A DNA stretch of 64,000 nucleotides. It comes from Tubiluchus corallicola (Eukaryota > Animalia > Priapulida). The stretch covers positions 62,001 to 126,000 of the forward strand of contig JAQGDQ010000512.1 in the NCBI GenBank assembly GCA_030141605.1, read 5' to 3'. Position 1 is the stretch's first letter. Each line of letters opens with the position of its first letter. Under the pieces are notes generated by a model. It was not told where the DNA came from. It did not search any database and was given only the letters and a program-made list of their open reading frames with translations. This document shows, in pieces, positions 25,501 to 28,700 of this stretch. Position numbers and translations under genes: made by a program.

Positions 25501-25718
25501 AACTTAAAAGGTGCAATTTAATAGCAATGATGTGAAAGCAAAACATGGAGCAGCGAGGAACTTACCGGCTAATACGTAATTATCGATGACACTCAGTGCG
25601 GTTATCGGCGCCACGATGAGTCTTTCTTGAATCGTACACGATGCGAGTCTCACTGCAGATTGAACAAAACTGTGGACAGCATCTACAATAGTTGAGACCT
25701 CGGCCATTGCTCCCAAAC
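1362..25718 (-). CDS. WDR6: WDR6 (WD repeat protein 6, Trm734 orthologue), 15 coding exons in window, 3' end continues beyond position 1; in frame with upstream PPCDC
   Basis: Exons 25566-25718, 24388-24423, 23643-23715, 21884-21953, 20849-20958, 20447-20594, 18888-19069, 13916-14048, 11719-12662, 9597-9742, 8613-8728, 7094-7285, 5876-6034, 3438-3512, 1362-1553. All GT-AG and phase-compatible. Hallmark motifs DWIWDA, SDDRSIR, FGHGARVW, LLLPVSKHRW, GDRGGS, HGKTGVT, CGGGHRSW. Confidence 0.93.
2314..2660. repeat. 69-bp minisatellite, ~5 copies
   Basis: Unit CCTCGCTATTTGTGAGGACCGTG...CATTCAACAA. Confidence 0.92.
3438..3512 (-). CDS. WDR6: WDR6 exon (VHSDMTWLERIHFVKDDTLVIGFLS)
   Basis: tttcag/gtaagt, 75 nt, phase 0-0. 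Confidence 0.88.
4915..5772. repeat. 54-bp minisatellite, ~15-16 copies
   Basis: Unit GATGTCTATGACAAAAACAATCTATTCTAAAGAACAAACAGTGAGAGTTGG-type. Confidence 0.95.
5876..6034 (-). CDS. WDR6: WDR6 exon (AEEPAQSHFRVHGKTGVTG...GRDG...SAR)
   Basis: ttttag/gtaagt, 159 nt; HGKxGVT and GRDG motifs; not in the ORF track. Confidence 0.92.
6052..6654. mobile_element. Copy of the ~600-bp MITE family, 17 bp from a WDR6 acceptor
   Basis: Same TIRs and body as 19732-20358. Confidence 0.85.
7094..7285 (-). CDS. WDR6: WDR6 exon (IVWKL...LLLPVSKHRW...GDRGGSIHVY...CEM)
   Basis: ttttag/gtaggt, 192 nt. Confidence 0.92.
7590..7925. repeat. 18-bp minisatellite (TTTGTTTGTGTATACACC)
   Basis: Direct reading. Confidence 0.93.
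8613..8728 (-). CDS. WDR6: WDR6 exon (...AYDGKVFNLTW...SSGPDGRI); second in-frame acceptor at 8719
   Basis: gtaagt donor; two acceptors 9 nt apart; phase 1-0. Confidence 0.88.
9597..9742 (-). CDS. WDR6: WDR6 exon (LLCMYD...NDARYRSYAVM...GNLHGDV)
   Basis: ttgtag/gtaagt, 146 nt, phase 2-1. Confidence 0.9.
9675..10153. repeat. 162-bp unit x3 spanning a WDR6 acceptor
   Basis: AACGATACCGAG at 9675, 9837, 9999. Confidence 0.93.
10129..10890 (-). mobile_element. Helitron-like non-autonomous elements (two related pieces)
   Basis: 3' hairpin CGCAAA...TTTGCG, then GGGC(A/C)TTTGCTAG-T at 10285 and 10129; related pieces at 12985-13060 and 13620-13670. Confidence 0.55.
11719..12662 (-). CDS. WDR6: WDR6 large exon with Thr/Ser/Ala-rich 43-aa repeat insert
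   Basis: tttcag/gtaagt, 944 nt, open throughout; starts VTGGTDCSIRTW, ends FPRSVSLTKSGALVVTNNG. Confidence 0.88.
13096..13175 (+). ncRNA. Twister ribozyme core (type P1), lacking the 5' strand of P1
   Basis: U/AA-CCUA-GC-[CACUG...CAGUG]-CCGGUCCCAAGCCCGG-AUAAA-UAGG-GAGGG; P2 CCUA/UAGG, P4 CCGG/CCGG. Confidence 0.85.
13097..13602 (+). mobile_element. Internally deleted RTE-clade (Rex3/Expander-like) element in (TA)n
   Basis: RTE-type 5'UTR (caggaagggcatc...gtaaaa), decayed ORF end (LKGKVHK...ALIYGLEA...EMRMLR*MVGITRRDKIRN), (GAA)n tail. Confidence 0.85.
13916..14048 (-). CDS. WDR6: WDR6 exon (HLVSVSEDGTCCVW...IWSLAV)
   Basis: tttcag/gtgagt, 133 nt, phase 2-0. Confidence 0.92.
16998..17368 (+). 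mobile_element. Solo LTR (TGTTG...CAACA), 5-bp TSD CAAAG; duplicate at 15118-15488
   Basis: TG..CA ends, internal AATAAA, exact TSD. Confidence 0.85.
17540..18310 (+). mobile_element. Helentron/HINE-like element with ~180-bp internal tandem units (duplicate at 15660-16430)
   Basis: Four units with tgacctttgacc, followed by (ACAG)n and a short hairpin. Confidence 0.55.
18359..18865. mobile_element. Tc1/mariner-pogo-type MITE, TA TSD
   Basis: TIR CAGTCAATCTC/GAGGTTGACTG, repeated TATAAGGGAC motifs; truncated copy at 16479-16660. Confidence 0.85.
18888..19069 (-). CDS. WDR6: WDR6 exon (GVVFCID...SVSDDRSIRVY...FGHGARVW)
   Basis: ctttag/gtatct, 182 nt, phase 0-2. Confidence 0.93.
19732..20358. 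mobile_element. Abundant ~600-bp MITE family with ~37-bp TIRs; other copies at 1-505, 6052-6654, 22138-22725, 26010-26618 (inverted, interrupted), 31490-32045, 55140-55312
   Basis: TIR TGTGTGCTTGCA(A/T)AGCAAAA(C/T)CGTCCATAAGTCGGCA, TA flanks; explains the recurring RWLFLTKI / DYLSLEIT ORFs. Confidence 0.88.
20447..20594 (-). CDS. WDR6: WDR6 exon (YSAKLIG...VASGTVYNEVLLW...LTGHK)
   Basis: ttcaag/gtattt, 148 nt, phase 2-0. Confidence 0.92.
20849..20958 (-). CDS. WDR6: WDR6 exon (GTEKTMAAVLAHNFVLEWD...CEENCLL)
   Basis: gtacag/gtatcttt, 110 nt, phase 0-2. Confidence 0.9.
21884..21953 (-). CDS. WDR6: WDR6 exon (WILYGGENLLEDWIWDAKFLTEQ)
   Basis: tttcag/gtatct, 70 nt; DWIWDA motif. Confidence 0.92.
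23643..23715 (-). CDS. WDR6: WDR6 exon (SKLVCVFGQRYFRLL...)
   Basis: ttgcag/gtgtgt, 73 nt, phase 1-2. Confidence 0.85.
24388..24423 (-). CDS. WDR6: WDR6 36-nt exon (FSEAVVHGIRQ)
   Basis: ttccag/gtaagt, phase 1-1; matches the IHGxR motif. Confidence 0.82.
24811..25173 (-). mobile_element. Headless copy of the SINE body, with (CAA)n tail
   Basis: Aligns by eye to 30712-31130 with an internal deletion. Confidence 0.85.
25566..25718 (-). CDS. Shared exon: PPCDC C-terminus (GLGAMAEVSTIV) in frame with WDR6 N-terminus (LIVAPITALSVIDNYVLA)
   Basis: aacag acceptor, gtaagt donor, 153 nt, phase 1-1, no stop codon. Confidence 0.9.
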
Positions 25719-28700
25719 CTGTTATAATCATCATCATCATCGTCATCATTATCATCAATATCATCGTCGTTCATTATCATCATCATCGTCGTCGTCATTC
25801 ATTGTCAGTCATCATCATCATTATAATCATCATCTCCATCATCATCGTCATCATTATTATCATCATCAATATCATCATCATCATTCATTGTGAGTCATCA
25901 TCATTGTCATCATTATTATCATCCACAAGGACATCACAAACCAACATAATTTTTAACAGCAAAAATATTCCACAAGCGTGTTGCAGAAAAGTGGGTAAGG
26001 AGCTTTAAGTGTTTTTTGGTGTAGACTAAATTTTTAGTATTTTTCAACACTTTCTCAATAATTTGATTCTAGAACAGGGTTGTGCAAACTGCGGCCCGTT
26101 GACAGATCTTGTATGGCCCGCGAAGAGGTTTGTGAACGTAATGAAAGTGCGGCCCACGCGATCCAGCTGAAGTCTGCGCCAATATCGCAAAGATAGTGCA
26201 GGTAGTTTTTTCCTCTAGATCGGATGGCATTAACCCTTACAAGACCGTTGTCACTTAATGTTACTGTCCGACATGACGAAATATATGGTCTTTAATATAA
26301 ATTTTAATAACTTCTAAAAGAGTTTCTTGAGTGCAGTAGTAATGATGTGCGCAAATCGGATGTAAAAAAATCTTTATTAGGTCCTACTGTACTTGGCTCC
26401 TTGACCAAACTGCATGTGGCTCGCAGGACTTGCGGGAATGTTTAATGTGGCCCGGCTAGTCAGATAATTTGCACACCCCTGTTCTAGAATATAAAAGTCC
26501 AATATATAAAAAACAAAAATTAAGATTTAACCAAATTTTTGACAAATTCTACTTTGAAGCATAATAACGTAGTTTTAACTATGCCGACTTATGAACGGTT
26601 TTAGTCTGCAAGCGCACATATTCTACTTGCCACATAACACTAGACATCAAACATAAACAACGCGGCCATTTAAAACAGAGCCCGTGTACCTTTGTCGCCG
26701 CACGCTAAGCGTTTTTCGACGCACGGCACCTCGACAAAACCCATTTGCTTTAGCGACTGAATGTGCCTGGAGGTGATGGGATTGTTCCACATGAACGTGT
26801 TCATGGCTGGGCAGAAGAGCAAAGGTTTACTGAAGTCCCACGCTCTCACGATGCACGTCTGAAAGACAACGTAGAGGTCCTATTAGCAGGCTAACAATTT
26901 GTTTCCATGAAACAACTCATTTTCACAAACTTGCTGAAGACCCTTTAGACCAAATTGCATTTTAAAGTTTGTTTTAACAAATACTGAACATAAGAAGAAC
27001 ACAAAATATGAATAGAATTGTTAAAGGGTTAAAATGCAGTCACTCCCTTTTAACTTTTAAAAAAACCGTCAGAAAAGAAATATTTCAAAAGTACTGAGAG
27101 TAACACAGTTTGATAATGGTAATCACCTGCATTCTTTTTCCACAGTAATCTTAATAAAACGTGACTATGCTCAACAGGTTACTGAACACTTTATAATCAT
27201 GATCACAGTTTTTCTTTGTTCTCGCTCCATTTCATCTTTCATTCACTACTCCCCCCACATCACAGTTTTTCTTTGTTCTCGCTCCATTTCATCTTTCATT
27301 CACTACTCCCCCTACATCACAGTTTTTCTTAGTTCTCGCTCCATTTCATCTTTCATTCACTACTCCCCCCCACTTTTATGTATATATTATCATTATCTCA
27401 ATTATTAATCATTTCTTTAAGATTTCCACGTACAGTTTGGCCTGTCCAGCTATGCTTTTAGGCTCAAGCTGTATGCATCAAAATTACTCTGTAATGTAAT
27501 TTGCACATGCATATGCTGCATAAGAATCTCTTTTGTAATTTCTGGATAATATTGCATTTATATTTATATTTACTTCAGTGAAATTATCTGTATTTTTATT
27601 ATAACTATAAAATGCAGAGTGGAAATAAATAAACTTATAACTTATAACAGGCTTAGTGATTTCTCTGTTTTTTCTCTGAAGTATTTCCTTTTTTCTTGTA
27701 TGTACAACTAGTGTCACTACCACATTGACTTAGTAATTGCTTGTACCAAGCAGCACCTCAGGAACGTCACCTAGTTAAAAGAGCTTCCTGATTCAGTGAA
27801 GCATTTTGCTGTTAAAAAAGGTGACACAGGTGCAGTAACTTTCGGGCAGTCACTCTGTAAACACTCAGTAACTCGCTATCAGTCCCTCAGAAAAATCTCC
27901 GACTAGCTCACATTCAGTAACTCACTATCAGTCACTCAGTAAACTCTCTGACTGGCTCACACTCAGTAACTCACTAGCAGTCACTCAGTAAACTTTCTGA
28001 CTAGCCCACACTTGGTAACTTACTGGTAGTCACTCAGTAAACTCTCTGACTAGCTCACACTTAGTAACTCACTTTAGTCACTCGGTAAACTCTCTGATTA
28101 GCTCACACTCAGTAACTCACTGATAGTCACTCAGTAAACGCTCTGATTAGCTCACGCTCAGTAACTCACTGGCAGTCACTCAATAAACTCGCTGATTAGC
28201 TCACGCTCAGTGACTCACTATCAGTCACTCAGTAAACTCTCTGACTAGCTCACACTCAGTAACTCACTGGAGTCACTCAATAAACTCTCTGACCAACTCA
28301 CACTCAGTAACTCACTGGCAGTCACTCAGTAAACTCTCTGACTAGCTCACACTCAGTAACTCACTGGCAGTCACTCAGTAAACTCTCTGACTAGCCCACA
28401 CTCAGTAACTCACTGGCAGTCACTCAGTAAACTCTCTGATTAGCCCACACTCAGTAACTCACTGGCAGTCACTCAGTAAACTCTCTGACAGCTCACACTC
28501 AGTAACTCACTGGCAGTCACTCAGTAAACTCTCTGATTAGCTCACGCTCAGTAACTCACTGATAGTCACTCAGTAAACTATCTGACTAGCCCACACTCAG
28601 TAACTCACTGGCGGTCACTCAGTAAACTCTCTGGCAAGGCAGTCTCCTGAACTGCTTTTAAGTTTGGCAAACTTGACTCATTGCAAAAAGGCACAACTAA

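Follow-up and report, generated by a model that had tools for sequence, protein, structure and literature searches.

The 64,000-nucleotide stretch of the Tubiluchus corallicola (Priapulida) genome analysed here (the window; contig JAQGDQ010000512.1, forward-strand positions 62,001 to 126,000, assembly GCA_030141605.1) carries a PPCDC gene and a WDR6 gene that share one predicted exon and one reading frame on the minus strand. The gene model was pieced together manually, with open frames, splice signals and homology as guides, and all of its splicing is predicted; coordinates below are those of the minus strand unless marked otherwise. The model comprises 20 exons from an ATG at 33046 to 583 (3451 nt, 1150 codons, no stops) and stays open past the window edge. 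The 1150 residues within the window have a computed mass of 124.6 kDa, and the full PPCDC–WDR6 protein is predicted to be about 1,500 residues long, with some 390 C-terminal residues past the window. A first-pass annotation of this DNA had counted 19 exons and 3258 nt; the length is reproduced when our last exon (712–583, 130 nt), which is the additional one, and 63 nt, the difference made by taking 24423 as the exon-6 acceptor, are subtracted from 3451. A candidate exon at 3076–3024 was dropped, as including it disrupted the frame and the exons on either side are contiguous in homologs. Splice sites were scored with a matrix trained on this gene, in which the 20 donors range from 0.8 to 11.4.

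The first four exons encode the PPCDC domain. The coding part of exon 1 (33046–32912, with a GTAAGC donor) was recovered by tblastn with PPCDC homologs and has a weak match to the Pfam Flavoprotein domain (E 0.073), and exon 2 (30602–30504) aligns with two homologs (tblastn E 3e-5 and 2e-8). Exons 3 (29225–29100, E 1.7e-15) and 4 (26858–26690, E 1.4e-5) both lie above the Pfam cut-off for PF02441, the signature of a eukaryotic PPCDC (Hal3-type flavoprotein). Over about 180 residues this part is 60–67% identical to its best homologs, and the closest homolog retrieved shares 73% on exon 4. The motif residues, placed by motif position, are kept: His88 in exon 3, the His of HIEL and the one we take to be catalytic, and in exon 4 Asn140 of PxMNxxMW and Cys173. 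According to PMC6168597 and PMC9604783, His, Asn (substrate-binding) and Cys of these types are essential in PPCDC, and the enzyme is a homotrimer in most eukaryotes. Judged by its sequence, the PPCDC half looks like an intact and functional ortholog. In a 41-row PPCDC tree it fell beside two plant outgroup rows, a placement that is likely a long-branch effect.

Exon 4 ends in phase 1 and is followed by the junction exon, exon 5 (25718–25566, 153 nt, phase 1 at both ends), which lies between an AG and a GTAAGT donor and is open in the frame reported by the first-pass annotation. In a single frame it encodes the final helix of PPCDC and the opening strands of WDR6. It begins with the PPCDC C-terminal segment (25718–25654, residues 177–198, including Met181 at 25707), whose first 14 residues score 30.0 bits against a profile of 111 PPCDC tails; none of 2000 shuffles reached this value (best 9.2). 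A spacer of about 11 residues (25653–25621, residues 199–209) leads to the WDR6 N-terminal segment (25620–25566, residues 210–227), which runs up to a strong donor at 25565 (9.1 in the splice matrix). Against a profile of three WDR6 N-termini, made without the window sequence, residues 33–50 of the exon score 15.0 bits, again a value unmatched in 2000 shuffles (best 8.2).

Homologs locate the two protein ends within this exon. In the 112 of 120 PPCDC homologs with a measurable tail, the protein ends a median of 26 residues past the G.GAM motif, corresponding to about residue 203 here; the tail is 33 residues or shorter in 91 of the 112 and at least 51 residues in five. Rather than ending 20–40 residues past G.GAM, the frame continues here for more than 970 residues. 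In WDR6 from Priapulus, sea urchin and goby, the start Met aligns to residues ~198–206 of the model. The spacer is where PPCDC would be expected to stop and WDR6 to start, but it has neither an in-frame stop nor an ATG, and Met181 is followed by no further Met until residue 314, upholding the earlier observation that no separate PPCDC stop or WDR6 start exon is visible. Both natural protein ends thus fall in the same ten codons, yet neither a stop nor a start codon lies there: a single open reading frame (ORF) crosses the domain boundary, uninterrupted by any stop and with no intron linking the two domains, which is the genomic hallmark of a gene fusion. A tblastn search of the window with two PPCDC and three WDR6 homologs recovered neither a second last exon of PPCDC nor a second first exon of WDR6, and the junction exon itself is single-copy there, the adjoining microsatellite aside.

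Downstream of the junction exon, the first-pass annotation had spliced 25566 to 24423. Another acceptor in the same frame, 24486, lies 63 nt upstream; it fits homologs better (50.8 bits versus 18.1 bits for 24423) and restores an LAGEG-type motif and the strand that follows it; the motif is present in all three full-length WDR6 homologs, once with S for A. The splice matrix favours 24423 (8.2 versus 1.9). On homology, 24486 is most likely the acceptor of exon 6 (24486–24388), and 24423 may be a minor, in-frame internal site because of its higher matrix score.

The remaining exons encode WDR6: exons 7–11 between 23715 and 18888 (23715–23643, 21953–21884, 20958–20849, 20594–20447 and 19069–18888, with an SDDR motif at residue 413), exons 12 and 13 between 14048 and 11719 (14048–13916 and 12662–11719), and exons 14–20 between 9742 and 583 (9742–9597, 8728–8613, 7285–7094, 6034–5876, 3512–3438, 1553–1362 and 712–583), where the frame is still open. 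The WDR6 part aligns to residues 15–334 (49%) and 472–840 (35%) of Priapulus WDR6 and is colinear with it from the first strand as far as residue 840 (1229 in all); searches with exon 19 recover named WDR6 proteins. The best PDB match of Priapulus WDR6 is Trm734 (E 1.8e-36), and yeast Trm734 (6JP6) has, from residue 10, a segment similar to the WDR6 N-terminal segment. According to PMC11170731, yeast Trm734 requires SDD200, RLW206 and WSH220 to form 2'-O-methylguanosine at tRNA position 34 (Gm34); here SDD is kept, as are the Arg of the second motif and the His of the third. Over the stretch within the window the WDR6 part looks, from its sequence, like an intact, complete-looking and functional ortholog; it has no start Met of its own, and the C-terminal residues that would complete the third propeller (BPC) lie beyond the window.

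Three further features of the WDR6 exons were observed. Exon 13 (12662–11719) contains a Thr/Ser/Ala-rich insertion of about 270 residues, and the Priapulus and goby proteins have insertions of their own at the same site. The donors at 20848 and 582, GTATCTTTT and GTATCCTTTT, resemble minor-spliceosome (U12) sites, and the acceptor that goes with the former scores 0.3, lower than any other in the model. The acceptor and 5' part of exon 14 are partially copied in two 126-nt stretches (97%), 10124–9999 and 9962–9837, which could supply decoy splice sites.

Two intact, colinear, orthologous halves abut in one frame. Our preferred reading is that the locus is probably a true head-to-tail fusion, expressed as one cis-spliced mRNA and a PPCDC–WDR6 protein whose halves keep their usual jobs. 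The in-frame fusion put forward in the first-pass annotation therefore stands at the DNA level, with orthologous intact halves and a shared exon, although the downstream junction proposed for testing it is probably the wrong one. Under this reading the PPCDC promoter would drive transcription, and cis-splicing would join 26690 to 25718 and then 25566 to 24486. The N-terminal domain would trimerise and decarboxylate phosphopantothenoylcysteine as separate PPCDC does, and each C-terminal triple propeller would bind FTSJ1/Trm7 for tRNA position-34 2'-O-methylation, as separate WDR6 does. The fusion may have originated from a tight tandem or dicistronic PPCDC–WDR6 pair that lost its stop and start codons through a small change, for example one indel, which would have merged the last exon of PPCDC with the first exon of WDR6. 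The benefit would probably lie in joint expression of two housekeeping genes, not in a biochemical connection.

Several points weigh against this reading. Both the splice pattern and the fusion protein are predicted from DNA and homology. Intron 4 has the lowest-scoring donor in the model (0.8), and the acceptor scores at 25718 (4.8) and 24486 (2.6) range from middling to weak. A PPCDC profile search of proteins of 367–2000 residues gave 2870 matches among 7998 scored; none of the best 120 of these 2870, the set examined, matched a WDR6 profile (best E 0.44). Conversely, the Flavoprotein domain was absent from all three full-length WDR6 homologs (12 WDR6 matches, five scanned). A literature search covering papers outside subscription returned no functional link between coenzyme A (CoA) synthesis and wobble methylation. 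Finally, the assembled sequence is one base away from a two-gene arrangement: of 600 single-base edits made across residues 188–212, 121 (119 insertions, two deletions, no substitutions) created two overlapping ORFs, success being a PPCDC stop together with an ATG in the WDR6 frame.

This last result raises the question of whether PPCDC and WDR6 form an overlapping dicistronic pair that a one-base assembly error, or a private allele, has placed in a single frame. A deletion at 25653 would yield a 198-aa PPCDC with a typical 22-residue tail and let WDR6 start 11 residues ahead of its conserved core, in an exact ATGA overlap, and one insertion anywhere in 25680–25650, a run of four T included, would link an out-of-frame ATG at 25682 to WDR6. 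Such arrangements exist: PMC4528330 describes 159 dicistronic pairs in Drosophila, some with a 1- or 4-nt overlap and one including Ppcdc. A 1.76-kb duplication in the assembly, 98% identical, also contains an N gap. The view that an artefact would need two errors is wrong; as assembled, the locus lacks the upstream stop and downstream start of a dicistronic pair, but one indel would supply both. However, nearness to a two-ORF state by one base is no evidence of error, because some single edit also worked in 293 of 300 synonymous recodings, with an exact stop/start overlap in 108 of 300. The rest of the 3451-nt coding sequence shows no frameshift despite 37 homopolymer runs of at least four, and the tail profile has no preference for the edited forms (36.9, 36.4 and 35.9 bits). 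We consider an error or private allele of this kind unlikely. Still less probable, to the point of being remote, is that a chimeric misassembly brought the two genes together, or that the fused copy is redundant, with stand-alone PPCDC and WDR6 genes elsewhere doing its work. Repeats flank the junction exon, duplications occur nearby in the assembly, and the stand-alone copies were sought within the window. But a misassembly would need its breakpoint in unique coding DNA, within about 30 nt of both protein ends and with the frame kept, and both halves are intact with their key motifs, unlike a decaying copy.

A different possibility is that the locus mainly makes separate products, with the fusion minor or conditional: WDR6 from Met181 once a spliced leader has been added at 25718, or else from a start lying within intron 4, and PPCDC through read-through of intron 5 and polyadenylation. 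The first-pass annotation had suggested such a triple use of the exon, and its description of Met181 was accurate, with a purine at −3, a G at +4 and a position 11 nt past the acceptor. The weak intron-4 donor and in-frame ATGs in a microsatellite just upstream of exon 5 (ATG triplets at 25764–25731, from which a gene finder could call WDR6) also favour it. Yet a conserved PPCDC motif fixes both Met181 and the bases around it, and they therefore do not indicate a second use. Interspersed repeats make up most of intron 4 (26689–25719), together with an ATC/ATG microsatellite that reaches the acceptor (624 of the intron's 971 nt match elsewhere in the window, and a 197-nt ATC tandem array occupies 25727–25923); the intron contains no convincing ATG-plus-donor exon (best donor 5.3). 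In-frame read-through of intron 5 to a TAA (25565–25504) would give the 247 residues claimed earlier, but not PPCDC alone, since it would append about 18 WDR6 and 20 intron-coded residues. A read-through of 20 codons is ordinary (median 14 over 19 donors), and AATAAA is absent from intron 5 against 0.9 expected, an uninformative count. The Met181 context and the product length were given correctly; the triple use itself has no positive support.

Base composition offers a hint on trans-splicing. The observed/expected CpG ratio is 0.94–1.21 in the coding exons of four housekeeping genes (1.13 at codon position 3|1) and 0.44–0.67 in copies of long and short interspersed nuclear elements (LINEs and SINEs), which suggests methylation directed at transposons. 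PMC12460157 associates this kind of methylation with trans-splicing groups (ctenophores, chaetognaths and nematodes). The hint is indirect, however, and overall we regard separate main products as a doubtful but appreciable possibility. A more elaborate version would make the fusion the sole source of both activities and exon 5 a switch: cis-splicing would give a trimer of about half a megadalton, a CoA-synthesis core with three FTSJ1-recruiting WDR6 arms that ties tRNA wobble methylation to CoA synthesis, and leader trans-splicing at the same acceptor would release free WDR6 from PPCDC's conserved Met. We rate this as a long shot.

Two sequencing runs mapped on 24300–26900 (one with 0.39 of 92 words) gave very deep cover on repeats; the low-depth mapping in the same region comprised short pieces of exon 4 / exon 6, 163 nt with two differences and 151 nt with none, left the junction exon without cover and included no splice joint, a pattern that speaks neither for nor against the fusion. 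The 50-residue junction peptide, a query short enough to make negatives weak, gave 31 candidates in the protein collection, none of them scored, and no match in PDB or Pfam. Nor did it give a usable match in the ESM Atlas, where an MRPS22-exon query fared likewise, or any hit among 583 pattern matches in metagenome contigs (0 of 385 for WDR6 exon 10).

The preferred reading, a true fusion, can be compared with what is known of each half. Stand-alone PPCDC (human 1QZU) and WDR6/Trm734 (yeast 6JP6) correspond to halves that within the window are each complete-looking orthologs, but in all homologs retrieved they are separate polypeptides (PPCDC shorter than 400 aa in 120 of 120; WDR6 in three of three full-length). 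The absence of a second species with the fusion is a weak negative, because the closest homolog retrieved was only 73% identical on exon 4. Our literature search found no report of a PPCDC–WDR6 fusion, and the combinations Trm734 with phosphopantothenoylcysteine and Ppcdc with dicistronic had no match.

PPCDC does acquire other partners. Among the best 120 of the 2870 long PPCDC proteins, the C-terminal partners included thymidylate synthase (two), C2H2 fingers (seven), ChaC (six) and a cytidylyltransferase domain (three). The Schizosaccharomyces Hal3–thymidylate synthase (PF02441 plus PF00303) resembles the present case in having an N-terminal PPCDC in frame with an unrelated housekeeping protein; it is reportedly a fusion gene, as the title of a 2013 paper by Molero et al. 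has it. It differs in its enzyme partner and long acidic linker, whereas the Tubiluchus partner is a non-catalytic triple propeller behind a spacer of ~11 residues, in a protein that is so far a prediction. Database models of chironomid PPCDC–C2H2 and nematode PPCDC–ChaC proteins likewise place PPCDC first with an unrelated domain behind it. Their partners are different, and four of six ChaC cases keep a Met at the ChaC start, whereas none is kept here; those four may be merged neighbouring genes, and some of the other joined models may likewise be annotation mergers. The C2H2 set of seven included two named chironomids, with P0193, P0216, P0218, P0220 and P0223 coming from chironomids and short contigs. 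In P0200, P0204 and P0207, all on short contigs, PPCDC is joined to a cytidylyltransferase domain that is presumably NMNAT-like. The cytidylyltransferase and C2H2 proteins look like further real fusions. A candidate with PPCDC and WD40 repeats from Allacma (P0166) was rejected as a PPCDC–WDR6 fusion, its WD40 region being of the NBAS type. One liverwort protein combined Cmc1 and PPCDC domains in a single model; no CMC2-like ORF was found upstream of PPCDC in the window (best tblastn E 0.34, no twin CX9C), and the main text of PMC11291117 does not mention PPCDC, COAC1 or CMC2.

Drosophila provides a related arrangement. File S1 of PMC4528330 gives Ppcdc as only dicistronic, 18 nt from the unrelated CG42496; as in the fusion, every Ppcdc transcript also carries the other gene. 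The Drosophila locus has two separate ORFs and another partner, in contrast to the one continuous ORF here, and by analogy a dicistronic locus such as CG42496/Ppcdc is a likely precursor state for a fusion. WDR6 would be a new partner for PPCDC, but PPCDC joining unrelated partners is already recurrent, and a fusion is less surprising because PPCDC fusions and dicistronic pairs recur.

If the fusion is real, it records a gene fusion at single-base resolution, in which two housekeeping exons have become one with both outer splice sites used, and WDR6 joins the list of partners acquired by PPCDC. It would suggest a route from dicistronic pair to fusion. An essential trimeric enzyme would have to tolerate a partner of more than 1,300 residues per subunit, and WDR6 would have to work with its N-terminus blocked. 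Any functional connection of CoA synthesis with tRNA methylation would be novel, and none is shown here.

Other features of the window were as follows. A SINE-like repeat in PPCDC intron 1 (31257–30700) is headed by a full 5S rRNA match (31257–31139, 94.6 bits), and a headless copy lies in intron 5 (25172–24813). On the plus strand, an ATP6V0B-like gene (39799–46009) is arranged head to head with PPCDC; its first exon was not found in a tblastn search of the window. Between the two genes is a minus-strand LINE-like element (38738–34350) with an endonuclease domain and a long frame in two pieces near 36120. A tandem duplication at 14901–16660 and 16781–18540 (1.76 kb, 98.2% identical, with a 5-N gap in one copy) is either a real duplication or a pair of uncollapsed haplotypes. 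MRPS22 lies at ~63360–54600 on the minus strand.

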